The notes beneath the pieces were generated by a model that saw only the letters and a list, made by a program, of their open reading frames with translations, ran no database searches and was not told the DNA's origin. A stretch of 64,000 nucleotides of DNA from Spirochaetia bacterium (GTDB taxonomy: Bacteria > Spirochaetota > Spirochaetia > UBA9216), in NCBI GenBank assembly GCA_963675665.1, contig OY776510.1, positions 2,176,001 to 2,240,000 on the forward strand, in the 5' to 3' direction. Of this stretch, positions 12,766 to 54,628 are shown piece after piece. The number at the start of each line of letters is the position of its first letter. Positions within the stretch are counted from its first letter, which is position 1. The position numbers were made by a program, and so were the translations under genes.

Positions 12766-13488
12766 CTACATTTCTGTGCTGATTATGCGTTTTACATTTC
12801 TGGGGTATCTTGTATCCGCCGGGTTTTTTGAATAATGATATAAACAGACGGAATCTCCCCAGCCGATGCATTTCGGCTGAACCAATCCCAGGTTCAGCGC
12901 ATCAGCCTGGGCAAAATCGAAAATATTGCAATATGAGTACATCTCGGGAAGGTTGTTGTTTTTCATAAAAGTAATCATTGCGCATTGGGTACACTTAACC
13001 TCCAGTAATGGCGCGGGGTCATGTGAATATTTGAAAGCAAGATGAAAGGTGTCGTGGTTTTTCGATTCATTCATTTGCCTGCATGCCGGCTTCATAATTT
13101 TGCCGAAGAGCCCTGAAACAATAACTTTTCGCTGTATCCGTCTGAACAACTTTGGAGTCTTCAGAAAATTCATCAGGCAGATTTCATAAGTCAGACGGCC
13201 TATCTGGTCAACTGTCCAGCCTGCATCTCTCAATTCGGTGTGAGCTGCGGCCAACAGGCCCAGAACCGGCATCAAACCGTTAAAGCTGTTTCGATCTCCG
13301 CCCGGATGATAAGGCAATGTACCCGCAAGAATGTTGATACGAAGGCTGGTCCTGTACTGAAAATCTTCGGGAAGACTGAGCGTCGGATATTTCCTGCAGA
13401 TTTCGAGGTAGAGCGGCATATACTTTGACACAGTTCTATTCAGGCGGTTAGTTTTCTTTAGCCAGTAATCTGAAGTTATTGTTTTCAT
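12766..13488 (-). CDS. L-2-amino-thiazoline-4-carboxylate (ATC) hydrolase-family protein with N-terminal extension
   Basis: C-terminal TQCAM...YCNIFD...LGLVQPKCIGWGDSVCLYHY pattern of the ATC_hydrolase family; ATG at 13488 preceded by GGAGG. Confidence 0.7.
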   Translation of the reverse strand: MKTITSDYWLKKTNRLNRTVSKYMPLYLEICRKYPTLSLPEDFQYRTSLRINILAGTLPYHPGGDRNSFNGLMPVLGLLAAAHTELRDAGWTVDQIGRLTYEICLMNFLKTPKLFRRIQRKVIVSGLFGKIMKPACRQMNESKNHDTFHLAFKYSHDPAPLLEVKCTQCAMITFMKNNNLPEMYSYCNIFDFAQADALNLGLVQPKCIGWGDSVCLYHYSKNPADTRYPRNVKRIISTEM

Positions 13489-39671: not shown

Positions 39672-40628
39672 ATGAAGCTGTCAAAAGAAAAGCATAAAGA
39701 ACTGTATCTGAAGATGATGCAGACAAGAAGATTCGAAGAAACAGCAGCAAGATTGTTTGTTGAAGGAAAGGTGCACGGTACAGCGCATTTTTGTATCGGT
39801 GAAGAAGCCACAGGTGTAGGCGTTTGTTCTGCTCTTGAGGTTGAAGACTATATTCTTCAGACTCACCGCGGACATAACCAGGGCATCGGCAAGAATATGG
39901 ATATAAACAGAATGATGGCTGAGTTCCGGGGAAAAGAAACAGGCTACTGCAAGGGTAAGGGCGGATGTATGCATATTGCAGATTTTTCCGTAGGTTCGCT
40001 CGGTGCCAACGGTGTTGTAGGCGGAGGCATACCTATCGCTACAGGCGCTGCTTTGAAACAGAAATACAATAAAGAGAAAAACATAACTGTCTGCTTTTTC
40101 GGCGACGGTGCTTCGAATGAGGGCGCGTTTCATGAATCTCTGAACCTGGCAGCCGCATGGAAACTTCCGGTCCTTTTTGTATGTACAAACAACCAGTACG
40201 GTATGTCTACTTCGACAAAAATTTCTATGGCTATTAATGATATTTCTATCCGGGCGGCAGGCTACGGCATGAAGGGTATTAACCTTGATGGAAATGATGT
40301 AGTGAATATCTACAATGAAACGGTTAAAGCTAAAAAATACATACTCGAGAACGGCCCGATGCTTATGGTTCTTGAAACATACCGCTGGATGGGTCACTCG
40401 AAATCGGACGCCCAGCTGTACAGAACCAAGGAAGAGGTTAACGAATGGAAGGAAAAGTGTCCGATTAAGCGGCACAGGGAATTCCTTCTTGCCGAGGGTA
40501 TCCTGACAGAAGCTGAAATTGATGCACTTGATAAACAGGCGGAAGAAGATATCAAAAGGGCAGTGGATTTTGCGGAAAACAGCCCGGAACCGAAGATCGA
40601 AGACATCTTTGATGATGTGTATGCGTAA
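39672..40628 (+). CDS. acoA: TPP-dependent acetoin/2-oxoacid dehydrogenase E1 alpha
   Basis: HFCIGEEA, THRGH, GKGGCMH, FGDGASNEG...NNQYG TPP motif, TYRWMGHS. Confidence 0.85.
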   Translation: MKLSKEKHKELYLKMMQTRRFEETAARLFVEGKVHGTAHFCIGEEATGVGVCSALEVEDYILQTHRGHNQGIGKNMDINRMMAEFRGKETGYCKGKGGCMHIADFSVGSLGANGVVGGGIPIATGAALKQKYNKEKNITVCFFGDGASNEGAFHESLNLAAAWKLPVLFVCTNNQYGMSTSTKISMAINDISIRAAGYGMKGINLDGNDVVNIYNETVKAKKYILENGPMLMVLETYRWMGHSKSDAQLYRTKEEVNEWKEKCPIKRHREFLLAEGILTEAEIDALDKQAEEDIKRAVDFAENSPEPKIEDIFDDVYA

Positions 40629-40718
40629 AGTTATTGGACGTCCTTGTCCAATAACTTTCGAAGTTTGATTGCTGCGCTATCAAACTTCAATTATGCAGTC
40701 CTGTCATCCGTGACAGGG
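40627..40718. repeat. Three consecutive hairpins (REP-like/structured insertion) between the E1 alpha and E1 beta genes
   Basis: AAAGTTATTGGAC-GTCCTT-GTCCAATAACTTT; GAAGTTTGAT-N9-ATCAAACTTC; CCTGTCA-TCCG-TGACAGG. Confidence 0.65.
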
Positions 40719-40745
40719 ATCATTAGTATTTAGGAGTATTATTTT

Positions 40746-41726
40746 ATGAGAGAAATTACATATGCACAGGCGTTAAACGAAGCGATGAGCGAAGAAATGC
40801 GCGCCGATAAAAATATAATCTTTATGGGCGAGGACGTCGGAGTTTACGGCGGAGCTTTTGGAGTTTCAAGGGGAATGTTTGAGGAATTCGGTCCGGAAAG
40901 GGTTATGGATACCCCTATTTCCGAACTTGCAATAACGGGATGTGCCGCGGGCGCATCAATGACAGGTCTTATAACAATTGTCGAAATTATGTTCTCGGAT
41001 TTTATGACTCTGGCCATGGAGCAGCTTGTTAATCAGGCGGCGAAAAACAGGTTTCAGTTCGGCGGACAGGGTTCGGTTCCGATGGTCCTAAGGGCACCGG
41101 GCGGATCAGGTACGGGCGCTGCCGAACAGCACAGCCAGAGTCTTGAAGCGTGGGTCGCTCATGTTCCGGGACTGAAGGTAGTTATTCCGTCAACCCCCTA
41201 TGATGCAAAAGGGCTTCTTAAGACTTCAATCCGGGATCCGAACCCTGTAGTCTTTCTTGAGCAGAAGCTTCTTTACAGAACAAAAGGTCCGGTTCCCGAG
41301 ATTGGAGACGATTACACAATACCTCTCGGAAAAGCCGACATTAAACGTGAAGGCAAGGATGTTACCATTATTACCTACGGAAGAATGGTTCCCCGCAGCC
41401 TGAAGGTTGCTGAAGATCTTGCGAAAGAGGGAATTGACATTGAGGTTGTCGATATCAGATCACTTGTACCGCTCGATAAGGAAACCCTGATAAAATCCGC
41501 CAAGAAAACCGGAAAGGTCCTTGTTGTTCATGAAGCATGTCAGACCGGCGGGTTCGGCGGCGAGCTTGTAAGCGTAGTTGTTGATTCGGACGCTTTCTTT
41601 TACCTTGATGCACCGGTCAGGAGACTGGGCGGACTTGATGTTCCTATTCCTTATAATCCGAATCTTGAAGCACAGGTTGTTCCGACTGAAGAAAAGATAA
41701 CAGCTGCTGTCAAAGATCTTCTCTAG
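40746..41726 (+). CDS. acoB: Acetoin/2-oxoacid dehydrogenase E1 beta
   Basis: [33 protein letters not shown]. Confidence 0.87.
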
Positions 41727-41735
41727 GAGTATAAA

Positions 41736-43082
41736 ATGGCTGAAAAGATAATAATGCCTAAAACAGGTATGGCGATGGAAGAAGGGGTCATTATCGAATG
41801 GCTTATTAAAGAAGGAGACAAGGTTTCCCAGGGCGATATAGTAGCTGAAATCGAAACGGATAAATCTACCATGGAGCTCGAATCTGACTACAACGGAACC
41901 ATACTTAAGATACTATATCCTGCCGGAACGACTGTTCCGGTAGTAAAAACAATAGCCTGGATAGGCGAGCCCGGCGAAGAGCTGCCCGAAGAGGAAGAAG
42001 CTCCGGCGGCAGCACCTGCAGCTGAAGAAGCCCCTGTAAAAGAGACTTCTGCCGTGCCCGCATCTGCACCGGCTGCCGGTGTTCAGGCCGGAACAACCAA
42101 AGCCGAGTCTGTAGGCAATCGCGTGAAGGCAACCCCTGCAGCCCGCCGCGCGGCAGGAGAAAAAGGTGTTAACCTGGCGGATGTTCAGCCGAGCGGAAAG
42201 CACGGTGAAGTTCGTGAAGGCGATGTGCTGGCGACTCCCGCTGTTTCTGCTACCCCGCTTGCGGCCCGTATCGCAGCCGACCAGAATATATCTCTGTCGG
42301 GTATAGCAGGTTCAGGTTTTGCAGGCAAGGTTTTCAAGGCGGATCTTTCGGCACTGAGCAGTATGTCTGCTGCAGTTGAGGAAGGTTTTGTTCCGAATTA
42401 TGAAGACCAATATGTCAAGCTGACCCAGATTCAGAAGATTACCGGTAAACGCATGCTTCAGAGTCATATCGAAATCCCGGTTGTTACCGAAGATGCTAAA
42501 GCCGATGTAACAGAGCTTCTTGCAGTTCGGAAGAGCCTTAATGAATCGCTTGATGCAAAAATCTCAATTAACGATTTTGTCATGCTTGCGACAGCCCGTA
42601 TGCTCAGGCTTAATCCTAGAATGAATTCACAGCTTGCCGGAGATGATCAGCTTCTCTACAAGGGCAGAATAAACCTTGGAATGGCAGTAGCCACGCCGCG
42701 TGGGCTTCTGGTTCCGGTAATCAATGATGCCGACATGTATTCAATTACAGGTATGGCCGCCGCAACAAAAGAGATGACACTTAAGGGCCGGGATGGTAAA
42801 CTTCAGGCTGATGATATGGAAGGCGGTACGTTTACAGTTTCCAATATTGGAATGTACGGGGTGACTTCTTTTACGCCTATTATAAATCAGCCCCAGGCAG
42901 GGATCCTGGGAGTCTGCGCTATTGAAGATCAGCTGAAGATGATAGACGGCGAGATTGTAAACCGCAAGATTATGGGACTCAGCCTGACATTCGATCACAG
43001 GATAGTAGACGGAGCGGAAGCCGCAATGGCAATCAAGACTGTCAAGGATTTTCTTGAATCGCCGTTGACAATTCTTGCGTAA
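41736..43082 (+). CDS. acoC: Dihydrolipoamide acyltransferase E2
   Basis: Lipoyl motif ETDKST; two E3-binding repeats (ATPAARR, ATPLAAR); FDHRIVDG catalytic motif. Confidence 0.88.
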   Translation: MAEKIIMPKTGMAMEEGVIIEWLIKEGDKVSQGDIVAEIETDKSTMELESDYNGTILKILYPAGTTVPVVKTIAWIGEPGEELPEEEEAPAAAPAAEEAPVKETSAVPASAPAAGVQAGTTKAESVGNRVKATPAARRAAGEKGVNLADVQPSGKHGEVREGDVLATPAVSATPLAARIAADQNISLSGIAGSGFAGKVFKADLSALSSMSAAVEEGFVPNYEDQYVKLTQIQKITGKRMLQSHIEIPVVTEDAKADVTELLAVRKSLNESLDAKISINDFVMLATARMLRLNPRMNSQLAGDDQLLYKGRINLGMAVATPRGLLVPVINDADMYSITGMAAATKEMTLKGRDGKLQADDMEGGTFTVSNIGMYGVTSFTPIINQPQAGILGVCAIEDQLKMIDGEIVNRKIMGLSLTFDHRIVDGAEAAMAIKTVKDFLESPLTILA

Positions 43083-43095
43083 AACGGAGAAAAAA

Positions 43096-44529
43096 ATGGC
43101 TGAAAATAAATATGACGTAATCGTAATCGGCGGCGGTCCCGCCGGTTATGTTGCGGCCATCAAGGCCGCCCAGGTCGGCGCAAAAACCGCCTGTGTTGAG
43201 AAAGATATCCTCGGCGGAACATGTCTTAACCGGGGATGTATCCCCACAAAGAACTTTCTGAAAAGCGCCGACTTCCTTTACGAAATGGAAGAAGCAGCTT
43301 CGCGCGGAATAAAACTCGAATCGGATAAATTTACTATCGATATGCCGGCGGTTGTAAAAGCCAAGGACAAGGTAGTTAAAAAACTTACCGGTGGAGTCGG
43401 CACGCTGCTTAAGGCTAATAAAGTTGATGTATTTTACGGAAAAGGAATTGCCCGGTCAGCTACTGTTATACAGGTAAGTGGAGGAAAATCAGGCGATTTG
43501 ACCCTTAATACAGGTGCGATCATTCTTGCCGGCGGTTCAAAAGCTGTTAAGCTGCCCATCCCCGGCGTTGAAAGCGAAAGGGTCCTGACAAGCGATGAAA
43601 TACTAGATATTCAGGAAGTGCCGTCCGCACTTGCGATAATCGGCGGCGGTGTAATCGGTGTTGAGATGGCCATGGTTTTTGCGGCCTTCGGCAGCAAGGT
43701 TACCATTGTGGAACTTGAACCGGCCATTTTACCCTTTATGGAAAAGGAAGCCTCGGACCTTGTTCTTAAATCGCTTAAAAAGAAGGGTGTTGACGTAAAA
43801 ACGGGCATAAAACTTGAAAAGTTCGAAGAAACCGAGAGCGGTATAAAGCTGGTGCTCGGAAACGGTGAAACAGTTGAAGCTGACAAGGCCCTTCTTTCAA
43901 TCGGACGGAGTGCTGATTTGAGCTGTGCTGAAGGATTGAACATCAAGACCGAACGGGGAAAGATTGTTGTCAATGACGAAATGGAAACCTCGGTCAAAGG
44001 AATTTTTGCTCCAGGGGATGTTAACGGTCTGAAAATGCTGGCGCATGCCGCATTTAAAATGGGTGAAGCCGCTGCCGTGAACGCCGCCAAATATGCCGGA
44101 GTAAGTTCTGAAGAGGTAAACGGGCACGCGCCTGTAAAGGCCGATTTGCGTTATGTTCCTGCAGTTGTTTATTCTGTGCCTGAGGTAGCAAGCGTCGGAC
44201 TTTCTGAAGCAGCTGCGGCAGAAAAGGGTCCGATCGCCGTAGGTAATTTCCCTCTTGCGGCAAACGGAAGAGCGCTGGCGGCAGGGGCCCCCGAAGGATT
44301 CGTCAAGGTTATTATAGATTCCAAATACGGGGAGATTCTAGGCGTCCATATTGTAGGGCACGGGGCTTCTGAAATAATCAATGAAGCAGCCGCGCTCATG
44401 GCCATGGAAATTACAGCCCATGAAGTTGCAGAGATTATGCACGGACATCCGACGGTCTCGGAGGCTTTTATGGAAGCCGCCGCCGATGCTCTTGGTAAAT
44501 GTATACATTTGCCCCCAAAAGCAAAATAA
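43096..44529 (+). CDS. lpdA: Dihydrolipoamide dehydrogenase E3
   Basis: GGGPAGYVAA, GGTCLNRGCIPTK, HPTVSE. Confidence 0.95.
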   Translation: MAENKYDVIVIGGGPAGYVAAIKAAQVGAKTACVEKDILGGTCLNRGCIPTKNFLKSADFLYEMEEAASRGIKLESDKFTIDMPAVVKAKDKVVKKLTGGVGTLLKANKVDVFYGKGIARSATVIQVSGGKSGDLTLNTGAIILAGGSKAVKLPIPGVESERVLTSDEILDIQEVPSALAIIGGGVIGVEMAMVFAAFGSKVTIVELEPAILPFMEKEASDLVLKSLKKKGVDVKTGIKLEKFEETESGIKLVLGNGETVEADKALLSIGRSADLSCAEGLNIKTERGKIVVNDEMETSVKGIFAPGDVNGLKMLAHAAFKMGEAAAVNAAKYAGVSSEEVNGHAPVKADLRYVPAVVYSVPEVASVGLSEAAAAEKGPIAVGNFPLAANGRALAAGAPEGFVKVIIDSKYGEILGVHIVGHGASEIINEAAALMAMEITAHEVAEIMHGHPTVSEAFMEAAADALGKCIHLPPKAK

Positions 44530-44611
44530 AATCTTCGATTTTTATTTTGCTTACAGGAGCTTTTTTGACTGAAGACTGCCAAAAATCTCCATAAAAAATG
44601 AAGGACGAAAT

Positions 44612-45547
44612 ATGAGCAGAAGCCAGGATTTTATGGTGGAAATCGCCAGACGATACTATATAGATGAAATTTCACAGCAGGAAATTGCCAGAGAATATAA
44701 TCTGTCCCGGCCGACTGTTTCAAATATTTTAAAGCAATGCCGCGAAGAGGGTATAGTTGAGATCCGTATTCGCGAGAGTTCGGCCTTTTCTCGTGGATTG
44801 AGCAACCGCCTGCGCGATCGGTTCGGAATTCGAGATGTAATAATTGTTCCTTCCACAGAAGACCCTTCGGCGGCATTGAGCAGGGTCGGAGCCGAATCGG
44901 CAGCATTCGCTTCAGATGTGATAAAGGATGGTATGAAGGTCGGTATCGCATGGGGTACAACGCTGTTCCAGATGGTGCATCAGATGAAGCATCTGAACGT
45001 AGTCGATACCGAGGTTGTACAGCTTATGGGCGGTCTGGGCGCGTCCAATCCCCAGTATGACGGGGCCGATCTGGCGCGTGAACTGTCCAAGCTGCTGAAT
45101 GCCCGTTATTACCCGCTGCAATGCCCGGTGCTTGTAAAGAATACCGAGGTAAAGGAAATGCTGGTCTCAGAAAACGGTATACGCGAAACATTGCAGCGTA
45201 CAGGAAATCTCGATATAGCGTTTGTCGGGTTGTCATCAAATGATCCCGATAAATCGGCCCTTGTAAAAGCCGGATTTCTGACTTATGAAGAGGCTGAAGA
45301 AACCCTGCGCGCCGGGGCCGTAGGTCATATTTGCGGTTACAGTTACGGGGAAGAAGGTAAAATGCTGCCGCTGCCGGTTAACCACAGGATTATAGGAATT
45401 GAATTTGAGAATCTGAAAAAGATTCCCGAGCGTGTAGGAATTGCATGCGGCTCGGAAAAGGCGGATGCAATCAAGGCTGCCATGACAGGCGGGCTGATAA
45501 CCACCCTTATTACCGACGAATCGGCGGCATTGAGAATACTTAGCTGA
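44612..45547 (+). CDS. SorC/DeoR-family sugar-binding transcriptional regulator
   Basis: ARRYYIDEISQQEIA...SRPTVS...GIVEI; GIAWGTT; GAVGHIC; LITDE. Confidence 0.9.
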   Translation: MSRSQDFMVEIARRYYIDEISQQEIAREYNLSRPTVSNILKQCREEGIVEIRIRESSAFSRGLSNRLRDRFGIRDVIIVPSTEDPSAALSRVGAESAAFASDVIKDGMKVGIAWGTTLFQMVHQMKHLNVVDTEVVQLMGGLGASNPQYDGADLARELSKLLNARYYPLQCPVLVKNTEVKEMLVSENGIRETLQRTGNLDIAFVGLSSNDPDKSALVKAGFLTYEEAEETLRAGAVGHICGYSYGEEGKMLPLPVNHRIIGIEFENLKKIPERVGIACGSEKADAIKAAMTGGLITTLITDESAALRILS

Positions 45548-45624
45548 TTATTCATTCTACTTGCATTGTTTTACAAATGGTAATATCCTTTATATAAATT
45601 ATTACCGAAAACGAGGAAAAATAT

Positions 45625-46929
45625 TTGTTAAGATTAGGACTAATCGCTCCTGAATGGTCTCTGGAACGAATCCTTTCAGTTTCAGCTGAATATAAAGATA
45701 ATATCAAATTCTCAACTTTTAAATTTAACAGCATTAAAGAAATTCCCAAAATCATCGAAGCTGAAAAAGGTCATATCCATAGATGGCTTTTTTCAGGCCC
45801 GCTGCCATATTATATTTCAAAATATTACCTGCACAAAGATGAGGATCTTTTTTATTGCAGAATAACCGAGGCGGGACTTATGAAAAGTCTCCTTGAGGTT
45901 GCTTACGATCATAAAAGTTTTCTTCAGAAAATATCTCTTGATTTTATGGAAGAGATTGCTGATATGAATATGATCATCAGTGAGATAAACATACCTCGCA
46001 GTGATGTATTTATCTCATGTTACTCAGTCCCATTGGAAGAAGATGAGATATTTGAATTCCATTTTAAATTATGGAAAGATAAAAAAACCTGTTGTGCAAT
46101 TACAACGATACCTTCAGTTTATAATAGGTTAAAAGAATCGGGAGTTCCGGTTTATAATATTAAAGTTTCCAGTATGGAAATAAGACTGACAATAGAATTG
46201 TTGTTGGAAAAAGAGCGAAGCATGTATTTTAAAAATACACAGCTCGGGCTTTTAGCAATTGAGATTTCCAACTACGAATCTGTTGCTGAAAAGGCTATGA
46301 CGCCGTACAAGATGCAGCTTTTGGAATTAAAAATAAATAATCTGCTTTTGAATTATTGTGAACAAATAGACGGTTATATGGTTCCCAAGGGAAACGGCCG
46401 ATATGAGATCTTTGGCTCACGAGGTAAAATTGAAAGTAATATTCCATTGCTGAGTGCTGATATGGATAAAATCTCGGTTATCATTGAAGCAAAACTTGTT
46501 GCCGGTATCGGATTCGGTGATACTGTCTTCATCGCTCAGATAAATTCAAATAAGGCTTTAAATCTAGCAAGGAAGAAAAGCGGAATAATTATTCTTGACG
46601 GAGACGGCAATGTAATAGAGCAGGCGAATGCAAACGACAGAATATCATACAGCATCAGTTCTGACAATGCCGAGTTAAATAGATTGCTTCAAATTGCCAA
46701 TGTGGGTATCCGAACCTATAGAAAGATGTCAGCCTTGTCGGAGCATTTCGACGGAAACAGTTTTTCGGCACTGACGATAGCGCAGCATATGGGAGTTACT
46801 GATCGAAATCTTAGAAGAATAATCTCAGGGCTTTTAAAAGCAGGTTTGATTGTATGTGTAGGTGAGGAATCATCAGGAGAAAGGGGCCGGCCTGCGAAAA
46901 TATATAAGTTTTCGAATATTAGCAAATAA
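45625..46929 (+). CDS. Putative transcriptional regulator with C-terminal HTH (GRP motif)
   Basis: LFSGPLPY N-terminal motif; C-terminal IAQHMGVTDRNLRRII...GEE...RGRPAKIY; TTG start with GAGGA RBS. Confidence 0.72.
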   Translation: MLRLGLIAPEWSLERILSVSAEYKDNIKFSTFKFNSIKEIPKIIEAEKGHIHRWLFSGPLPYYISKYYLHKDEDLFYCRITEAGLMKSLLEVAYDHKSFLQKISLDFMEEIADMNMIISEINIPRSDVFISCYSVPLEEDEIFEFHFKLWKDKKTCCAITTIPSVYNRLKESGVPVYNIKVSSMEIRLTIELLLEKERSMYFKNTQLGLLAIEISNYESVAEKAMTPYKMQLLELKINNLLLNYCEQIDGYMVPKGNGRYEIFGSRGKIESNIPLLSADMDKISVIIEAKLVAGIGFGDTVFIAQINSNKALNLARKKSGIIILDGDGNVIEQANANDRISYSISSDNAELNRLLQIANVGIRTYRKMSALSEHFDGNSFSALTIAQHMGVTDRNLRRIISGLLKAGLIVCVGEESSGERGRPAKIYKFSNISK

Positions 46930-46944
46930 TTTAAAAGAAAAAGA

Positions 46945-47003
46945 TTGCGTATTTTTATTGGTTGTGTTATATTTAATTACGGTATAAATAAGGAAATATA
47001 CCG
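46945..47003 (+). promoter_or_regulatory. Promoter and palindromic operator of the ATC-hydrolase operon
   Basis: TTGCGT-17-TATATT (46945-46973, TG-extended); CGGTATA-N10-TATACCG (46980-47003); related GGTAATA-N14-TATTACC at 45579-45606 upstream of the regulator. Confidence 0.55.
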
Positions 47004-47025
47004 ATAAAAAATAAAGGAATTTGCA

Positions 47026-47517
47026 ATGGAAAATATAAATGATGTTCCAATGATTTTAAGGAGACAAATAGAAGCTTCCGTAATTGGACCTTTTTTTTCC
47101 AAATACTCAAAGGAGTTGGGATACGAGAATAATTGCGAAATTACAAAAGAGGTAATTTCAGGTCTTGCGAAAGAAGCCGGGGCTTCCCTTGCAAAAGCTG
47201 TTGGATTTAAAACACTGCTTGATATCAAGGAAAAAGTTAATCCACTTTTCAATAAAGGGGGAGTGCTGGAAATAAACTATAAAGAATGCTCCAAAGAAAA
47301 ATTGGTATTTGATGTAACAAAATGTGCATATGTAGAGATGTATAAAAAGCTCGGAATGGAAGATCTGGGATATCAATTATCCTGTCAGCGAGATGAATTT
47401 CTTTTTAAAGGAATGAATAGTAATATCAAATTTACCCGAACACAAACTTTAATGGAAGGCGGTAAATGTTGTGACTTCTGTCTTGAACTTGATAAAGAGA
47501 GCTTAGATGAGAATTAA
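47026..47517 (+). CDS. L-2-amino-thiazoline-4-carboxylate hydrolase-family protein
   Basis: RRQIEA, FDVTKCAYVEMYKKLG..DLG..LSCQRD, FTRTQTLMEGGKCCDF. Confidence 0.85.
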   Translation: MENINDVPMILRRQIEASVIGPFFSKYSKELGYENNCEITKEVISGLAKEAGASLAKAVGFKTLLDIKEKVNPLFNKGGVLEINYKECSKEKLVFDVTKCAYVEMYKKLGMEDLGYQLSCQRDEFLFKGMNSNIKFTRTQTLMEGGKCCDFCLELDKESLDEN

Positions 47518-48832
47518 TGACTGGTTCAACAGGAATTCTCATGAGCTTGTACGGCTTAGTGATGCAATCTGGGGTTATGCAGAGACAGCGCTGAATGAAA
47601 GAAAATCATCTAAATTGCTTTCGGACTTTCTTGAACAGCAGGGCTTCTCTGTAGACAGGAACATTTCAGGTCTGCAGACAGCTTTTCGCGCCGTATGGGG
47701 CAAGGGTGAACCTTCGATTGCTTTTTTGGGGGAATATGATGCTCTTTCGGGGTTAAGCCAGAAACCGCTTCCATATATTGAAAAAAACAATTCGTCCGAA
47801 AACGGTCATGGCTGCGGTCATAATCTCTTGGGAGTGGGAACTCTTGGCGCTGCTCTTGCGTTGAAGCATGTAATAGAACAGGAAAATATTGAAGGTTCTG
47901 TTTTTTTTTATGGGTGCCCTGCAGAAGAGACAATGACTGGAAAAATTCTTATGGAAGCTGACGGGGTTTTTGATGATCTTGATTTGGCGTTGTCCTGGCA
48001 TCCATCAACTGAAAACAGAGTAATGGAAAATGATTTTCTTGCAATGAAGACCCTTAGATATACATTCAACGGAATATCTGCCCATGCCGCTGCGTCTCCT
48101 GAAAAAGGACGCTCCGCTCTTGATGCTGTTGAGTTAATGAACGTCGGTGTTAATTATTTGAGAGAGCATGTCCCCGATGATGTAAGGATACATTATTCAA
48201 TAACCGACGGAGGAACTGAACCAAATATTGTTCCTCCTTTGGCAAAATCTCTTTACTATATCAGGGCTTTAAAATGGAAAACTGTAGAAGAAGTAGTGTA
48301 TAGAATTAATAAAATTGCAGAAGGTGCTGCTCTTATGACTGAAACAGACAATCAGATCGAGCAATTAACCGACTGCAGGCAGTTCATACATAATTCCTGC
48401 CTGGAAAGATTACTGCATGATTGTATGCTTGAGACTCCTGCACAGCGATGGTCCAGTGAGGATATCGATTTTGGAAAAAGAATTGGAAAAACATTGGATA
48501 AGAATAATTTGTTTGGAAATAAAGAGAAAGGTTTTCTTGATAATAAAGTTTATCCGTTGAGTGAAAACCGTCCTGTTTATTTTGCATCTACGGATGTGGC
48601 GAACGTGAGCTGGAAGGTTCCTACAGGGCAAATATGGACGAGTTGTGTTCCATTTGGTGTTCCGGCTCATACATGGCAATTTACTTCAAGTGTAGGTATG
48701 TCTATCGGTCACCGGGGAATGCTTTATGCCGCGGAAGTTCTGGCAAGGGTTTCGACAAGATTTATCGGGGATAAAAATCTTCAGGAACAGATTAAAAATG
48801 AGTTTTATAAGAAATTGAAAAAGCAGGGGTAA
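47507..48832 (+). CDS. M20-family amidohydrolase (AbgB-like)
   Basis: GEYDAL, GHGCGHNLLG, GCPAEE, WHP, GRSALDAVELM...LREH, STDVANVSW. Confidence 0.88.
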   Translation: MRINDWFNRNSHELVRLSDAIWGYAETALNERKSSKLLSDFLEQQGFSVDRNISGLQTAFRAVWGKGEPSIAFLGEYDALSGLSQKPLPYIEKNNSSENGHGCGHNLLGVGTLGAALALKHVIEQENIEGSVFFYGCPAEETMTGKILMEADGVFDDLDLALSWHPSTENRVMENDFLAMKTLRYTFNGISAHAAASPEKGRSALDAVELMNVGVNYLREHVPDDVRIHYSITDGGTEPNIVPPLAKSLYYIRALKWKTVEEVVYRINKIAEGAALMTETDNQIEQLTDCRQFIHNSCLERLLHDCMLETPAQRWSSEDIDFGKRIGKTLDKNNLFGNKEKGFLDNKVYPLSENRPVYFASTDVANVSWKVPTGQIWTSCVPFGVPAHTWQFTSSVGMSIGHRGMLYAAEVLARVSTRFIGDKNLQEQIKNEFYKKLKKQG

Positions 48833-48839
48833 TCCGAAT

Positions 48840-50123
48840 ATGAATACTAATGAATATAAGAAAATTATGTCCATGCTGTCGACAGAACTGGTTCCGGCAA
48901 CAGGATGTACGGAGCCCGGTGCAATTGCATATTGTGCTGCACGGGTTCGGGATTTATTGGGCGAAATACCTGAGAAAATTTATATTGATGTCAGCAGTAA
49001 TATTTTAAAGAATGCAAAAAGCGTCAGTGTTCCTGCAACCGGAGGTTTAAAAGGCATACAGGCTGCTGTTGCTGCCGGGATAGTCGCAGGTGATGCTTCA
49101 AAAGAGATGGATGTTATTGCGAATGTTCCTTCTGAAAAGATCAAAAAAATTCACGAGTATCTTGCTAAAGCAGATATTGAATTATCTATCCTTGAATCGG
49201 AATCAACATTGGAAATAAAAATAATCGGAATAATTAGAGAGCAAACTGCGATTGTGCATATTGTAGATCAGCATAACAACATAGTTTTTATGAAAAAAAA
49301 TGATGATATTTTATTGGACAATCTTTCCGGCAAAACTACACAGATAGGTGAGGAAGGGCGCTCGGATTTATCTTTGAAAGAAATTCTGGATTTTTCTGAT
49401 AATGTCCAATTGGAAGAAATCGAGAACATATTCAAGAAACAGATTTTATGCAATACAGCAATTGCTGAAGAAGGATTGTCAAATAAGTGGGGTGCCGGGA
49501 TAGGAAGACTGCTTCTCGACTCAAATGAAAACAATATCGAAGTTGAAGCCAAAGCATATGCGGCTGCGGGCTCCGATGCAAGGATGAGCGGCTGTGATCT
49601 TCCAGTCATTATTATTTCAGGATCAGGTAATCAAGGGCTGACTGCTTCACTTCCTGTCATTCGGTATGCAAAACATTTCAGAATACAGAAGGAAAAATTA
49701 TATCGGGCCCTGGCTGTTTCTGCTCTGGTTACATTACAGCAAAAAACCAGAATAGGAAGATTATCCGCTTATTGCGGAGCTGTAAGTGCAGGAGTCGCCG
49801 CCGGAGCAGGTATTGCATATATGCTTGACGGTTCTTTTAAGGCTGTATCGCAGACAATTAATAATGCGATTGCAATAATTTCCGGGACACTGTGTGATGG
49901 TGCAAAACCATCGTGTGCGGCGAAAATAGCTTCATCAGTAGAAGCGGGAATACTTGGTTTCAATATGTATCGAAACGGCAAAGGTTTTCAGGACGGCGAA
50001 GGTATTGTAATGCGGGATGTAGATAGCACGATTGATAATATAGGGATTATCGCAAGTATGGGGATGAAGCAGACAGATAAAATGATTATTTCCTTGATGA
50101 TACAGGATGAAAAGGTTTCTTGA
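48840..50123 (+). CDS. cyuA: L-cysteine desulfidase (CyuA/YhaM, UPF0597; serine dehydratase alpha-like Fe-S enzyme)
   Basis: PATGCTEP, SDARMSGC, SGSGNQG, GRLSAYCG, CDGAKPSCAAK. Confidence 0.85.
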   Translation: MNTNEYKKIMSMLSTELVPATGCTEPGAIAYCAARVRDLLGEIPEKIYIDVSSNILKNAKSVSVPATGGLKGIQAAVAAGIVAGDASKEMDVIANVPSEKIKKIHEYLAKADIELSILESESTLEIKIIGIIREQTAIVHIVDQHNNIVFMKKNDDILLDNLSGKTTQIGEEGRSDLSLKEILDFSDNVQLEEIENIFKKQILCNTAIAEEGLSNKWGAGIGRLLLDSNENNIEVEAKAYAAAGSDARMSGCDLPVIIISGSGNQGLTASLPVIRYAKHFRIQKEKLYRALAVSALVTLQQKTRIGRLSAYCGAVSAGVAAGAGIAYMLDGSFKAVSQTINNAIAIISGTLCDGAKPSCAAKIASSVEAGILGFNMYRNGKGFQDGEGIVMRDVDSTIDNIGIIASMGMKQTDKMIISLMIQDEKVS

Positions 50124-50159
50124 TTGTTAATAAGAAATTTTTATACATAGGAGAGTTTT

Positions 50160-51401
50160 ATGGTTAATTTTGAGAAAGGTGTTGGAACAAAGAATTTATT
50201 CAGAGACTTTAAAAAAGATGTGTCATTTAAATCCGTTACAAACGGACTTGTAGCTACAATTTTTATGATGACGTTTCTTGTGTTCTTTTGGGCTGTGCTT
50301 CCCAAATACGGTTTGGATTCATCATTGATGGACGGCTGGATTACCGGTTGTATGATGATAATGGGAATAGGAACTATTTTTCTGTCGGCTTATTATCGCA
50401 AACCTATTGGTCTGGCAGGTTCATTTGCAGGTTGGCTGTGTGCTCTGAATGCTTCAACTATATATACTCAGCCGGAAGTGTTTGCGGGCTGCCTTATGTC
50501 CGGTGTTATTCTGACTATTCTGGCATTCAGTGGGTTGATGAAGAAAGTCTTAAAGTTTCTCCCGACCCCGGTAGTAATGGGAATGATTGCGGGTTGTTTT
50601 CTCAATTACGGGCTTTATATTGTTAATCCGTTATCAGAAGAACCTTTTGTTGTGATTCTGATGATTTTGGCATATCTGGTTACCTCGAAATTCTCGAGGA
50701 GAATCCCCGGAGTTCTTTCAGCATTGATCATTGCAATTGTCTATTATGCTGCTTCAGGACTGGATTTCCCTCCAGTAGAAATAACGGCAAGATTGCCGAA
50801 TTTTGTGATGCCGGCATTTACGGCGAATTTTCCGAAAATTTTTATATCTCTTACCATACCACTAACGGCATTGGTTCTGGGAGCGGAGAATTCCCAGGCA
50901 TATGGTGTTTTGGAAACTGAGGAATATAATCCGCCGGTAAATTCAATGACCCTTGTTTCAGGTATAGGAGGTATACTTTCTGCTCTTCTTGGATCAATAA
51001 ACACAAACATTGCCGGGCCTTTAACAGCTATATGTGCATCACCTGATTCAGGGAAAAAAGAGGGACGTTGGACAGCCGTAATAGTATTGGGGATTTGCCA
51101 GCTTATATTAGCTCCTTTTTATGCGAGTCTTGTTGGTTTGATAGTTAGCTTTCCAAATACATTTGTTTATCTGGTTACAGGTTTATCAGTTTTGGGTGTT
51201 CTTGTTTCCGCTTTGATGGGAGCTTTTAAGACTAATAGTCATCGAATAAGTGGGGTTTTCGCTTTTTTAATTGCGGCATCCGGTATTAAAATGATGGGCC
51301 TTAGCGCTGCTTTCTGGGCTCTTCTTATTGGAGACCTTATCTATATCTTTTATGAGAATGGATTGAAGAAAAAAGAAAAAGAGGCGGCCTTAACTGTTTG
51401 A
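50160..51401 (+). CDS. BenE-family (benzoate/H+ symporter-like) transporter
   Basis: About 11-12 TM helices; YRKPI, PTPVVMGMIAG, GPLTAICAS, GLSAAFWAL. Confidence 0.8.
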   Translation: MVNFEKGVGTKNLFRDFKKDVSFKSVTNGLVATIFMMTFLVFFWAVLPKYGLDSSLMDGWITGCMMIMGIGTIFLSAYYRKPIGLAGSFAGWLCALNASTIYTQPEVFAGCLMSGVILTILAFSGLMKKVLKFLPTPVVMGMIAGCFLNYGLYIVNPLSEEPFVVILMILAYLVTSKFSRRIPGVLSALIIAIVYYAASGLDFPPVEITARLPNFVMPAFTANFPKIFISLTIPLTALVLGAENSQAYGVLETEEYNPPVNSMTLVSGIGGILSALLGSINTNIAGPLTAICASPDSGKKEGRWTAVIVLGICQLILAPFYASLVGLIVSFPNTFVYLVTGLSVLGVLVSALMGAFKTNSHRISGVFAFLIAASGIKMMGLSAAFWALLIGDLIYIFYENGLKKKEKEAALTV

Positions 51402-51506
51402 TAGGCTAAACATATATTAATTAAATAAGGAAAAGTGTTTCAGGGACACTTTCCCTTATTTAGATAATTTGATGATACTGAATTATAACGTGATATAATA
51501 TAATTC

Positions 51507-52025
51507 ATGAGAAAGAATATATTAATCATATTAATTTTTCTTACTCTGCCCCCAACATCTTTAATCGCTTTCGAAAAAAATAATGAGCGCCCGTGGGACC
51601 TTTCCGCTGAACTGTCGATGATGCTGACGCTGCAGCTTGACGTTGAATATTTCTTTAACGACAGTTTCGGATTGAAAGCGGGATTTGGAATCTCTCCGAT
51701 CGGACTGACGTGTTTTTCGTACAATGCGCTCCTTGTATATCATTTAAACCTTCCGACCGAACATTTTCAGCTTGATCTGGAAGCAGGTCTGCCGCTTGCA
51801 TATTTCGATTTTATTGAAGGCCGGTATGTCGACTGGGACCCGCTGATCGATGATCCGTTCTTCGGTTTCCTGCCGGGCGGCGGAGCTCTATTCTCTTACA
51901 GGTTCAATGAAGAACATGCCCTTGGCCTGCGGGCGGCTGCCGCTGTAATGTTTGAGCATCAGCGCGATACCGGATGGAAAACCCCGGGTTTTATACCGAT
52001 TCTTGCGCTTGTCTATAACTTCTGA
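51507..52025 (+). CDS. Hypothetical exported protein, possible small outer-membrane beta-barrel
   Basis: Signal peptide; alternating hydrophobic strands; ends in YNF (aromatic C-terminus). Confidence 0.55.
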   Translation: MRKNILIILIFLTLPPTSLIAFEKNNERPWDLSAELSMMLTLQLDVEYFFNDSFGLKAGFGISPIGLTCFSYNALLVYHLNLPTEHFQLDLEAGLPLAYFDFIEGRYVDWDPLIDDPFFGFLPGGGALFSYRFNEEHALGLRAAAAVMFEHQRDTGWKTPGFIPILALVYNF

Positions 52026-52082
52026 AAACCCTTAATGCAGTAGTATATTGAAAGATAAAGATAAATAGATTATCGTGATTTC

Positions 52083-52901
52083 ATGAATAAAAGAATATTC
52101 TCGGCCGTTATAATGTTCTGTATTGTTTCAATACAGGTTTTTTCCGATTCCGATAAACCGTTCTTCTATATCTCCGATACATCGCGTGGACTTTATGAGA
52201 CGGGAAAGGTTTATGAAAATAAATTCTATATCCTGTTCGGTGAGCACCAGAATACTGCAATCTCTCCGAATGTGTTCAACACTATCGGAATAGGACAGGA
52301 TATCGGCAATCTTGAACCGGTCAAAAAAATCGGGACCATGGAGCTCAGGTCGTATTATACAGTTAAATTACTTGTCCCGGCTTCGGCTTTTCCCGATGCG
52401 CAGGAGCCGCTGACCATCGATTTCTTTTTGCGGGGAGGTTTTAATGTGCAATACCCGATAACCGTCCCCGTCGGACCCGACCGCTTTGATTTAAAAATTT
52501 CGCCGTATCTTCGGGCGGAAGCAATACTCGGCCTTTTCCCGCAGATATATAATATAAGTGTTCAATCATTTTTTACTCTGAACAGCGGAGCCGAAGTTGC
52601 CGCGCAGTACAGCCTGACGGATGAAATCAGGCTTGGAGCGGATATATCAACATTTCTTATCGGAATGGATACCGGCCGCGACGGCTATAATAAAGATTAT
52701 ATTCCGGATATTGTTTTTTCTCATCCGGGGAATTATATCGATTTGAATCTGGAGCTGTTCGGCGAATTTGATTTTTCCAGGACAGAAAGTTTGAGGATTG
52801 GGTACGCCCATAACGTCAATTCATATTACGGCGGGACCTACTCGATGATAAGCGGAGACCACAGGATAGGGGTTTCCGTTCTCAGAAAACTGATTCGATA
52901 G
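52083..52901 (+). CDS. Hypothetical exported protein, possible outer-membrane beta-barrel
   Basis: Signal peptide (QVFS); Gly/aromatic-rich strands; directly upstream of the S41 peptidase. Confidence 0.55.
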   Translation: MNKRIFSAVIMFCIVSIQVFSDSDKPFFYISDTSRGLYETGKVYENKFYILFGEHQNTAISPNVFNTIGIGQDIGNLEPVKKIGTMELRSYYTVKLLVPASAFPDAQEPLTIDFFLRGGFNVQYPITVPVGPDRFDLKISPYLRAEAILGLFPQIYNISVQSFFTLNSGAEVAAQYSLTDEIRLGADISTFLIGMDTGRDGYNKDYIPDIVFSHPGNYIDLNLELFGEFDFSRTESLRIGYAHNVNSYYGGTYSMISGDHRIGVSVLRKLIR

Positions 52902-52911
52902 GAGGACGGGA

Positions 52912-54000
52912 ATGAAAAAATTACCTGTATTGCTCTTAACGGCAGTTCTTGTTTCCTGTATTCCTTATATAAACGACACATGGGATAATGATAAGGTTTC
53001 AACTTATGAATACCTCTGTGATCAGCTTGAAAACCATTATGTTTATTTTGATTATAAGAACCTTGATTTTACTGATATCAGAAATAATTACAAAAATCAG
53101 ATAGACAACGAAATGACCGACGAAGCCTTTTACCAGGTGCTTGAAAGCTTTATTTTTGAGCTTGAAGACGGGCATGCCAATATATTTACACCGTTTACCA
53201 CATCGCCGACCTATCCCTTCTTCATGGACGGATATGAAAAAAACTATGATGCAGAAGTTATAAGGGACAATTATCTGGATACAAATCCGGTTTACGGGAA
53301 GAGTATGATTAATAGCCTGATTGAGAGAAACGGTTCCGTTTACGGTTATATCTATTACGGTTCGTTTATGAATTCAGCAACTGTTTATGAAATTGAATAT
53401 ATTTTAAACAGGTTTCGAACGGCCGAAGTTAAGGGAATTATTCTTGATGTCAGAAATAACGGAGGGGGAGTGCTTGAAAATCCCCTGGTGCTGCTCAGTT
53501 ATTTCGGAGGAACTGCCCCGGGTACAAAAACCACAGTGCTGAAGGGTTGGCGCAGGGACGCTAAAGATATTTATACCGAGATTAACGGGATGGATTTTTC
53601 AATTGTATATTCAATCAGTTTTGATGTAACGTCCGATGAAAAGGTCTACAGGGGGCCGGTTGCGCTTTTGACCAACAGGTTGTCTTACAGCGCTACATCG
53701 TTTGCCGCGACCGCTTCAAAGGCTTTTGATAATGTAAAACAGATCGGCGGGAAAACCGGCGGCGGTATGGGGCTGCCTGTAGGCGGCACAATGCCGAACG
53801 GATGGACGTACCGGTTTTCAGGCAATGTGGTTATGGATTACAGGGCAGACAGCTATACTGATAACGGCTATAATTATGAGAAGGGCGTTCCCCCCGATAT
53901 TGAACAGGATGATGATCCGGTTACTGATGCAAATGACGAGATTATCGACAGGGCCATCCTTTGGCTTGACAGCGCGGAAGCTGCGGTTTTTACGGATTAG
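52912..54000 (+). CDS. S41-family (Tricorn/C-terminal processing) peptidase lipoprotein
   Basis: Lipobox LVSC; DGHAN, ILDVRNNGGG, SYSATS, GGKTGGG.G.P, GVPPDI. Confidence 0.88.
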   Translation: MKKLPVLLLTAVLVSCIPYINDTWDNDKVSTYEYLCDQLENHYVYFDYKNLDFTDIRNNYKNQIDNEMTDEAFYQVLESFIFELEDGHANIFTPFTTSPTYPFFMDGYEKNYDAEVIRDNYLDTNPVYGKSMINSLIERNGSVYGYIYYGSFMNSATVYEIEYILNRFRTAEVKGIILDVRNNGGGVLENPLVLLSYFGGTAPGTKTTVLKGWRRDAKDIYTEINGMDFSIVYSISFDVTSDEKVYRGPVALLTNRLSYSATSFAATASKAFDNVKQIGGKTGGGMGLPVGGTMPNGWTYRFSGNVVMDYRADSYTDNGYNYEKGVPPDIEQDDDPVTDANDEIIDRAILWLDSAEAAVFTD

Positions 54001-54628
54001 GGGGATAGAGAATTCTGATTCCGTAAATATTACGTGAAGCTCCTGTTCCCCATCTGTCAGTTACGTTGTATACATCTTTCAGGGTATGTTGATCGGGAAG
54101 TTCCGGATCATTCATTGTAAAGCCGTCTTTCTCATTCCAGCCTGTCAATACAATATAATGTGGAGCTGCCTGATATTCTACCTCGGCAATAACAGGGATG
54201 CCCTGTTCAAGATAGTATCTTATTAAAAGCAGATCAGCCGGTTGAGCGTTCCAGTCAAATCGGGTGTAGACCATTCCGCCTTTAAACCCGGCAAGCGCCG
54301 GCCAGTTGATATTAACCTTTCCGATATATGTATTTCCGTCCCAGCCGTCCTCAAAGCCGTTATTTTCCCTTAGCCAGTTATTCATTATTGCGGGAGTAAG
54401 ATCCTTGCTGAAAAAAAAAGATGTCACCATCGATATGCAGGTCAGCGCACAGCCGTGGGTTCTAATCGTTACTGATGATTTGTTGCCCAGTACTTCGTCT
54501 GCCCAGGCTGAATTCTTTCCCTGGACGTAATAAGGAACAGTTAAAGATGTGCTTTGTGTAAAAGCCTCAGGTGCCGGCATTGTCAGGAAAAGTATCGTAA
54601 GCAGTGATACGGTAAATTTAAATTTCAT
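53990..54628 (-). CDS. Secreted C39-like cysteine peptidase
   Basis: YYVQ, HGCALTCISM, HYIVLTG, MNDP catalytic Q-C-H-D pattern; signal peptide. Confidence 0.75.
   Translation of the reverse strand: MKFKFTVSLLTILFLTMPAPEAFTQSTSLTVPYYVQGKNSAWADEVLGNKSSVTIRTHGCALTCISMVTSFFFSKDLTPAIMNNWLRENNGFEDGWDGNTYIGKVNINWPALAGFKGGMVYTRFDWNAQPADLLLIRYYLEQGIPVIAEVEYQAAPHYIVLTGWNEKDGFTMNDPELPDQHTLKDVYNVTDRWGTGASRNIYGIRILYPPNP

Follow-up and report, generated by a model that had tools for sequence, protein, structure and literature searches.

In the window, by which we mean the whole 64,000-nucleotide stretch of Spirochaetia bacterium DNA considered here (assembly GCA_963675665.1, contig OY776510.1, positions 2,176,001 to 2,240,000), five genes at positions 45625–51401 encode a regulator, a PF14196-family protein, an M20 amidohydrolase, the cysteine desulfidase CyuA, and a BenE-family transporter. 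The function that we consider rather probable for this block is a pathway in which a 2-substituted thiazoline-4-carboxylate would be opened to an N-acyl-cysteine, which would then be deacylated and desulfidated. The BenE-type symporter would take up the ring-closed L-cysteine carboxylate; the PF14196 protein would hydrolyse the ring C–S bond, giving N-acyl-L-cysteine; the AbgB-type M20D enzyme would cleave the amide and free cysteine; and the oxygen-sensitive CyuA would eliminate H2S, turning cysteine into pyruvate, ammonia, and H2S. A PrpR-like regulator would control itself and the four-gene transcript via two inverted repeats. We infer the reactions, their substrates, the regulation, and the horizontal origin of the block from the observations that follow.

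The identity of the genes is observed directly. The first-pass annotation of this DNA had described a tight block of a regulator, a gene of the 2-amino-thiazoline-4-carboxylate (ATC) hydrolase family, and genes for M20, CyuA, and BenE proteins, and the open reading frames (ORFs), strand, and spacing all match: five ORFs lie on the plus strand at the positions it gave, separated in order by 96 bp, an 11-bp overlap (PF14196/M20), 7 bp, and 36 bp, and the genes are translationally coupled. Profile searches (Pfam, NCBIfam) assign the four proteins after the regulator to the PF14196, M20, PF03313, and BenE families. The same annotation had read the block as a unit for import, ring opening, amide cleavage, and cysteine desulfidation, which gains support from the residues of CyuA and from the recurrence of the combination with non-orthologous partners.

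The CyuA protein matches PF03313 at 199 bits (Pfam label SDH_alpha), and its sole PDB matches are to the L-cysteine desulfidase of M. maripaludis. Its cysteines C312, C352, and C359 align with the cluster cysteines C287, C329, and C336 of the M. maripaludis enzyme, and it also keeps the C23/E25 dyad, R248, N264, and K362. According to the accessible text of one study, the Cys23/Glu25 dyad is unique to CyuA, while the three cluster cysteines are common to CyuA and serine dehydratases (PMC12647591). Since the dyad is present here and absent from serine dehydratases, the objection that the Fe–S enzyme might be a serine dehydratase falls, and the protein stands as a CyuA family member, as first annotated, and is predicted to be a [4Fe-4S] L-cysteine desulfidase. 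An end product of serine or another amino acid (e.g., from an oxazoline), with the Fe–S enzyme working as a serine dehydratase, would agree with the Pfam label and with the homology of CyuA and serine dehydratases, but is extremely improbable given the CyuA-specific dyad and PDB matches to cysteine desulfidase only.

The M20 protein is, by its sequence, an M20D amidohydrolase of the AbgB/HmrA type. It matches TIGR01891 at 238 bits (cut-off 154), shows no match to the carbamoylase model TIGR01879 in the NCBIfam search, and has HmrA and a Xaa-Arg dipeptidase as its best PDB matches. It aligns at 41–41.7% over 458 columns with a 481-aa E. coli protein whose gene has abgT as its confirmed neighbour, and which we take to be AbgB; both have the motif set CGH...EE...H...H (C103, H105, E140/E141, H165, and H388). 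AbgB cleaves an aroyl-amino acid, p-aminobenzoyl-glutamate, and the cluster of this hydrolase, AbgAB, includes the AbgA subunit and the AbgT transporter; neither is encoded in the block 45625–51401 (ORF list and Pfam). The M20 protein is predicted to be an N-acyl-cysteine deacylase; M20 enzymes of B. subtilis deacetylate N-acetylcysteine, as stated in the accessible part of one source (PMC12757645).

The PF14196 protein covers positions 1–144 of the 145 of its Pfam model and scores 109.1 bits (cut-off 28.1). The founding member of the family is reportedly a purified ATC hydrolase, and to our knowledge one member has been characterised to date, on an industrial substrate. From the founding member and the gene neighbours, the window protein is predicted to be a thiazoline ring-opening enzyme. 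In an alignment of 38 sequences, C100, C149, and D123 are invariant, C120 and R122 are at least 90% conserved, and R13, E16, R122, D123, and R138 are conserved alongside the three cysteines. A PDB sequence search gave nothing significant. The structure model (predicted local distance difference test, pLDDT, 94) matches TRAPP, the V4R domains of the phenol sensors MopR/PoxR/DmpR, and H-NOX (Foldseek, VIA), the best structural match having Z 9.9 and a root-mean-square deviation of 4.1 over 141 residues. The window protein thus shows the family feature of a V4R/H-NOX-like fold with three conserved cysteines, and it probably binds metal; this relationship of the three-cysteine family was described by Galperin et al., in the text accessible from that work (PMC5847659).

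The first-pass annotation had specified a route from ATC to N-carbamoyl-cysteine, and this specific claim fails at the amidohydrolase. As stand-ins for the Pseudomonas ATC loci we used loci of Klebsiella and Sinorhizobium chosen by layout, in which the PF14196 partners match TIGR01879 at 395 and 466 bits; AtcC is presumably an enzyme of this type. The window PF14196 protein is 32% identical to its carbamoylase-paired Klebsiella counterpart (stand-in for AtcB). The M20 protein shares 16–19% with the two carbamoylases, with no meaningful BLAST match and a different metal-ligand motif, and was rejected as a carbamoylase on these grounds and for want of a TIGR01879 match. In Pseudomonas, as the accessible text has it, DL-ATC is converted to L-cysteine by an ATC racemase, the L-ATC hydrolase AtcB, and an N-/S-carbamoyl-cysteine amidohydrolase, followed by a desulfhydrase (PMC10821248). 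The block resembles this route in its PF14196 gene beside an M20-superfamily amidohydrolase gene and in the proposed fate of cysteine (pyruvate, NH3, H2S); it differs in the AbgB type of the amidohydrolase, the lack of a racemase (no racemase or oxidase ORF in 45625–51401 by ORF list and Pfam), the Fe–S CyuA inside the operon, the BenE transporter, and the spirochaete host. It fails two defining features of the Pseudomonas pathway, the carbamoylase and the racemase. Hence the use of ATC, the cyanide–cystine adduct, via N-carbamoyl-L-cysteine, with the AbgB-type M20 protein as carbamoylase, looks quite unlikely, and the carbamoylase-paired PF14196 proteins moreover occupy a separate, proteobacterial part of the family tree. 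On its side are the reported activity of the founding member, the residues that the window protein shares with carbamoylase-paired members, two carbamoylase-like genes elsewhere in the genome, and racemase-family genes both in Treponema loci and in the Sinorhizobium carbamoylase locus.

The proposed pathway with an AbgB-type deacylase has relatives elsewhere. In a 132-sequence tree, the window PF14196 protein groups with P0002, P0003, and the proteins of the Treponema loci L044 and L048 (support 0.87). Both loci carry an AbgB-type M20 gene (40–41%), CyuA (43–44%), and a racemase-family gene; their gene order, with a divergent MarR–AbgB–CapA–CyuA unit, is unlike that of the window. L224 (PF14196–CyuA–M20) and L096 (oxidase–CyuA–amidohydrolase–PF14196) are further anaerobe-type versions with CyuA. 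The genome itself has six PF14196 matches above the cut-off, three of which surround a second CyuA, together with RidA and a sugar kinase; both CyuA copies of the genome adjoin PF14196 genes. The closest homologues of the regulator, the PF14196 protein, and BenE (66, 72, and 86%) each lie on one 26,452-bp ENA contig, and homologues of PF14196 (54%) and BenE (65%) each on one 22,699-bp NCBI contig; the equal contig sizes suggest that these homologues are co-located.

Plasmids show the association in other forms. There are 85 plasmid records with a PF14196 match, and among the 18 loci examined, hand-picked for variety, 14 contain an amidohydrolase gene. It is a carbamoylase in 7 of the 18, all without an oxidase (one with an intact racemase gene, one with a pyridoxal-phosphate (PLP) cysteine desulfhydrase). 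Seven other loci combine a pipecolate-oxidase-like flavin adenine dinucleotide (FAD) enzyme with an M20 aminoacylase (six by tblastn, the seventh by annotation); a Cds1-like desulfhydrase is also encoded in three of these, and a SufS-like class V enzyme in two. Thus Agrobacterium and Azospirillum have PF14196, the M20 aminoacylase, the FAD oxidase, and a PLP Cds1-like desulfhydrase (562 bits, cut-off 600), whose place is taken in Sagittula and Pseudosulfitobacter by the SufS-like enzyme. In several alphaproteobacterial operons, PF14196 stands directly between the oxidase and the aminoacylase. Since the carbamoylase loci lack an oxidase and the oxidase loci carry an aminoacylase, the type of partner amidohydrolase probably tracks the acyl group released. 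That aerobes have PLP desulfhydrases at this step and anaerobes have CyuA agrees with the known division of labour by oxygen between CdsH and CyuA (PMC9040844, accessible text).

Hydrolysis of the C–S bond of a 2-R-thiazoline-4-carboxylate would yield an N-(R-carbonyl)-cysteine, and the partner amidohydrolase should match R. With R = NH2, the product is the carbamoyl derivative through which the Pseudomonas route runs (PMC10821248); with R = H or methyl, these are the formyl and acetyl compounds known from thiazolidine oxidation, and the sequence from thiazolidine via thiazoline and N-formyl- or N-acetyl-cysteine to cysteine is known chemistry, as far as the accessible portions of these sources go (bioRxiv 2020.03.19.981027, PMC4222106). 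ATC would suit the carbamoylase loci, and thiazolidines the oxidase–aminoacylase loci; the loci of the window and of Treponema, judged by their genes, stand apart as a third type that has AbgB and CyuA. For the window, our leading guess is an aromatic acyl group, with formyl or acetyl as alternatives, because AbgB acts on an aroyl-amino acid and relatives of BenE occur in aromatic-acid clusters.

The transporter matches the BenE family PF03594 at 200.3 bits (cut-off 27) and reaches 160 bits with TIGR00843 (benzoate/H+ symporter; cut-off 203.4); a PDB sequence search gave no match. Searched with a BenE alignment, 300 other genomes of the phylum gave no match, a Bacillota-centred sample matches in 36 of 351 genomes, and Synergistota in 9 of 121. 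At 38 loci of BenE homologues (28–41% identity), the gene stands beside genes for acetaldehyde dehydrogenase/HMGL-like aldolase, molybdoenzymes, and UbiD or acyl-CoA ligases. In Pfam, the regulator matches winged helices alone, at its C-terminus, weakly and below the cut-off. Its structure model (pLDDT 82) matches the PrpR sensor domain (target TM 0.80) and GGDEF domains in Foldseek, so the modelled architecture would be a PrpR-N-like sensor, a GGDEF/cyclase-like middle domain, and a C-terminal winged helix. Thirteen regulator homologues were found, those named being from Bacillota, and 12 of their loci were examined: an M20 gene is nearby in seven and an AbgT transporter gene in three. The regulator family has no Pfam model, and in Bacillota its genes often lie beside those of M20 amidohydrolases and AbgT transporters (L421, L424, L425).

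Several observations weigh against the proposed pathway. In the model, the fold of the PF14196 protein is of the ligand-binding sensor type, and, given its kinship to the TRAPP, V4R, and H-NOX binders, a catalytic role does not follow from the fold by itself; the closest solved relatives of the M20 protein are dipeptidases. These two points, the many PF14196 homologues that have no catabolic neighbours, and the regulator homologues in AbgT/M20 clusters without PF14196 would suit a V4R-type, non-catalytic binder of a small molecule or metal, with M20 and CyuA scavenging N-acyl-cysteines or cysteine dipeptides directly. We regard this as unlikely, given the reported purification of the family founder as a hydrolase, the position of the gene between oxidase and aminoacylase genes in alphaproteobacterial operons and its overlap with the M20 gene here, and the arginine and acidic residues conserved beside the cysteines.

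Further points of the same kind come from the comparison of loci. Among 64 genome loci, 2 have both an amidohydrolase gene and a cysteine-degrading gene along with PF14196; the corresponding figures are 1 among 80 metagenome loci and 2 among 80 spirochaete regions. Of the loci examined in the three sets, 17, 47, and 17, respectively, are shorter than 10 kb, and L044 and L190 denote a single site that is counted in two sets. The spirochaete set comprises 79 regions covering 81 of 98 matches outside this genome, plus one other region, and leaves out near-duplicates and some weak rows. None of the 25 Synergistota PF14196 homologues (121 genomes) has a CyuA or AbgB-type match within 1.5 kb, and the 12 regulator-homologue loci contain neither PF14196 nor CyuA. 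The same is true of the 38 BenE-homologue loci, a control set that holds none of the partner classes either. PF14196 homologues were found in 15 of the 349 Clostridia genomes scored (two more were not scored); the loci of Clostridia and Synergistota together include one carbamoylase-paired locus and three with M20 on the other strand, and none has CyuA within 1.5 kb. In the Bradyrhizobium loci with M20 nearby, an opposite-strand gene lies between, so PF14196 and M20 are probably not coupled there. Finally, the full five-gene set was met at none of the loci examined in other genomes. The genes thus co-occur elsewhere in part: PF14196, an amidohydrolase, and a cysteine-degrading enzyme recur, with non-orthologous partners, in unrelated bacteria, but most of the PF14196 loci examined lack the partners. 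The association is recurrent yet limited to a minority of the PF14196 family, which must include members with other substrates or roles.

That the five-gene set was met at no other locus examined could also mean that two modules serving separate substrates were joined in one insertion, the regulator, AbgB, and BenE forming an abg-like module for aroyl-amino acids, and PF14196 and CyuA one for cysteine. Regulator and AbgB-type genes do occur together in Bacillota abgT clusters (L421), and PF14196 and CyuA occur without M20 in L013 and L201. We nevertheless think this very unlikely: PF14196, AbgB, and CyuA recur in Treponema in another gene order, the genes are translationally coupled here, and regulator, PF14196, and BenE homologues appear to share one contig elsewhere.

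The substrate, too, meets objections. The aromatic guess depends on distant family labels. The genome has no match to proline dehydrogenase (Pro_dh) and no close homologue of the alphaproteobacterial FAD oxidase; its two DAO-family genes are unrelated to that oxidase. With no oxidase or racemase in the block either, thiazolidines would not be activated by these genes alone, so the compound imported in the proposed pathway probably enters as a thiazoline or an N-acyl-cysteine.

The first-pass annotation had given the block its own promoter and palindrome. Promoter hexamers and inverted repeats can indeed be read by eye (Table 1), but neither scan nor folding rises above chance: a promoter scanner reports 22 promoter-like sites against 19.1 ± 5.2 expected by chance, with none on the plus strand in either intergenic gap (5' of the regulator; between the regulator and PF14196), and the two gaps fold no better than shuffled sequences (z −0.39 and −1.24). 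Both 7-bp-arm repeats contain GGTA...TACC. The repeat before the regulator is possibly its autoregulatory operator, the repeat before PF14196 is likely the operator of the catabolic genes, and control of itself and of the four-gene transcript by the regulator is likely. A strong hairpin 3' of benE (51416–51468; 23-nt arms, 87% complementary; z −3.94, 0/200 shuffles) is likely a terminator.

Table 1. Genes of the block and candidate regulatory features read in its intergenic gaps (window positions)
Feature	Positions	Strand	Size	Remark
Regulator	45625–46929	+	434 aa	
PF14196 gene	47026–47517	+	163 aa	
M20 amidohydrolase gene	47507–48832	+	441 aa	
cyuA	48840–50123	+	427 aa	
benE-family gene	50160–51401	+	413 aa	
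Promoter-like TTTACA-17-TATAAA	45570–45598	+		by eye
Inverted repeat, 7-bp arms, overlapping TTTACA-17-TATAAA	45579–45585 / 45600–45606	+		by eye; candidate autoregulatory operator
Promoter-like TTGCGT-17-TGnTATATT	46945–46973	+		by eye
Inverted repeat CGGTATA-10-TATACCG	46980–47003	+		by eye; candidate operator of catabolic genes

The block is probably a horizontally acquired insertion, because similarity in four genus mates stops at the upstream regulator, the PF14196 protein lacks matches in the genus mates and the BenE protein in the other genomes of the phylum searched, and the homologues are of the Bacillota type: the regulator, M20, and transporter sequences most resemble genes of Bacillota-type anaerobes. 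Sequence resembling the window runs in these mates up to the stop codon of the upstream regulator, and the next 1.5 kb encode none of the block's five proteins. Directly upstream of the block, positions 39672–45547 encode proteins that inspection identifies as E1-alpha, E1-beta, E2, and E3 of a dehydrogenase complex for 2-oxoacids or acetoin, together with a sugar-binding regulator; the last two genes of this region are conserved in the four mates and thus predate the insertion. In these searches, which are samples and partly of incomplete genomes, five genus mates give no match to the PF14196 protein, and 3 of 60 relatives give one, in each case weak. M20 matches occur in three of the five mates (39–42%), away from other block genes, and CyuA matches in 4 of 10 family genomes are nearer to the L013 paralogue than to the block CyuA. 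The protein encoded at 52912–54000 was not found in the five genus mates, and the variable region may therefore reach past benE. The AT bias noted at first is present, but moderate in degree: the GC content of the block is 0.385 against 0.433 for the genome, and 70 of 879 equal-sized windows have the same or a lower value. GC content at third codon positions is 0.28–0.35 in the block genes, against 0.444 ± 0.056, and as low in 19 of 336 long ORFs of the surrounding 0.5 Mb.

All parts of the block come from known families, and the logic of the whole is akin to that of the Pseudomonas ATC pathway. With E. coli cyuPA, which serves anaerobic cysteine fermentation (PMC9040844, accessible text), and with M. 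maripaludis CyuA, the block shares all catalytic and cluster residues and an importer and regulator alongside; unlike cyuPA, it has two extra upstream enzymes, BenE instead of CyuP, and a regulator of PrpR-N/GGDEF-like/winged-helix type instead of CyuR. It shares the AbgB-type M20D enzyme with E. coli abgABT, and its regulator family with Bacillota abgT–M20 clusters, but lacks AbgA and AbgT and has PF14196, CyuA, and BenE. Thioproline and thiazolidines are detoxified via PutA and N-formylcysteine (bioRxiv 2020.03.19.981027, PMC4222106); like the block as proposed, this route and that of the N-acetylcysteine deacetylases of B. subtilis recover cysteine from ring-closed or N-acylated forms, the latter with deacylation by M20 enzymes. 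In contrast to the block, these known routes rely on proline dehydrogenase (the enzyme that this genome lacks by Pfam match) working in a side reaction, or on acetyltransferase and lyase steps, and the accessible parts of the sources name no dedicated thiazoline hydrolase. Our literature search, covering titles and the beginnings of abstracts with subscription journals largely missing, returned no account of this gene combination or of the oxidase-containing operons.

A broader reading, offered tentatively and rather unlikely as a whole, is that PF14196 proteins are the widespread thiazoline hydrolases of a modular cysteine-unmasking pathway: an aerobic branch with oxidase, aminoacylase, and PLP desulfhydrase would act on thiazolidines (cysteine–aldehyde adducts, e.g., thioproline), a carbamoylase branch in Pseudomonas-type loci on ATC, and the anaerobic branch of the window on 2-aryl-thiazoline-4-carboxylates via N-aroyl-cysteine. 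The 2-aryl compounds might come from fragments of salicyl-thiazoline siderophores or from nitrile–cysteine adducts. In this broader reading, a BenE transporter would gain a first substrate with a heterocycle, and a lone AbgB would act on an amide of cysteine. The pathway proposed for the window, if real, would point to substrates for AbgB and BenE proteins that are still orphans, and would be one more source of H2S in anoxic habitats that does not depend on sulfate. Steps now put down to spontaneous hydrolysis, or to proline dehydrogenase acting outside its main role, would have a dedicated route. By itself the operon is modest as a finding; the pattern across phyla carries more value, since pairing with varied amidohydrolases and with PLP or Fe–S cysteine enzymes gives PF14196 a testable role in recovering or burning cysteine locked in thiazoline and thiazolidine rings.

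Other PF14196 loci have contents of their own. The conserved oxidase–PF14196–aminoacylase operon of Sagittula, Pseudosulfitobacter, Agrobacterium, Azospirillum, and Ochrobactrum plasmids (L384, L385, L386, L387, L389, L393, L397) mostly adds an ATP-binding cassette (ABC) importer and a Cds1-like or SufS-like PLP enzyme, in some cases RidA, and is a candidate for a dedicated thioproline/thiazolidine catabolic pathway. In L033 (4175–10450) and L096 (1779–14351), PF14196 lies beside ornithine-cyclodeaminase/mu-crystallin and DAO-family oxidase genes, a context of proline-analogue breakdown; L033 adds aconitase X, and L096 a split CyuA and an amidohydrolase. In Treponema sp. OMZ 840 (L044:9992–13765), the genes after PF14196 encode a member of the arylmalonate-decarboxylase family, a membrane protein that matches nothing in Pfam, and a BAAT/acyl-CoA thioesterase-like protein, which likewise points to acyl-group handling.

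The second CyuA locus of the genome (L013:1048–11937, at approximately 3796000–3807000) encodes GntR, a Liv-type ABC importer, a UroD-like enzyme, an FGGY kinase, two PF14196 proteins, a shikimate-kinase-like protein, RidA, CyuA, and a third PF14196 protein, and is conserved from UroD onward in two genus mates (L433, L434). A Treponema variant (L201:6949–14401) has PF14196, the Liv ABC genes, dihydroxyacetone-kinase-like genes (named by inspection), and CyuA; loci of this type suggest breakdown of sugar– or ketone–cysteine adducts. A further locus of the genome (L014:4430–10380, at approximately 1989400–1995400), with TetR, a GntP-like transporter, PF14196, a D-aminoacylase-like enzyme, a D-cysteine-desulfhydrase-like PLP enzyme, and RidA, is possibly a D-handed counterpart of the window operon. 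In L015 (5810–7683), a TetR gene precedes a gene for a 378-aa protein that joins a PF14196 domain to a transglutaminase-like one. Within the window, four secreted or membrane-type ORFs lie downstream of the block (51507–54628), and a weak PF14196-like match (24.5 bits, below the cut-off) lies on the minus strand at 12832–13044, in a 285-codon open frame.

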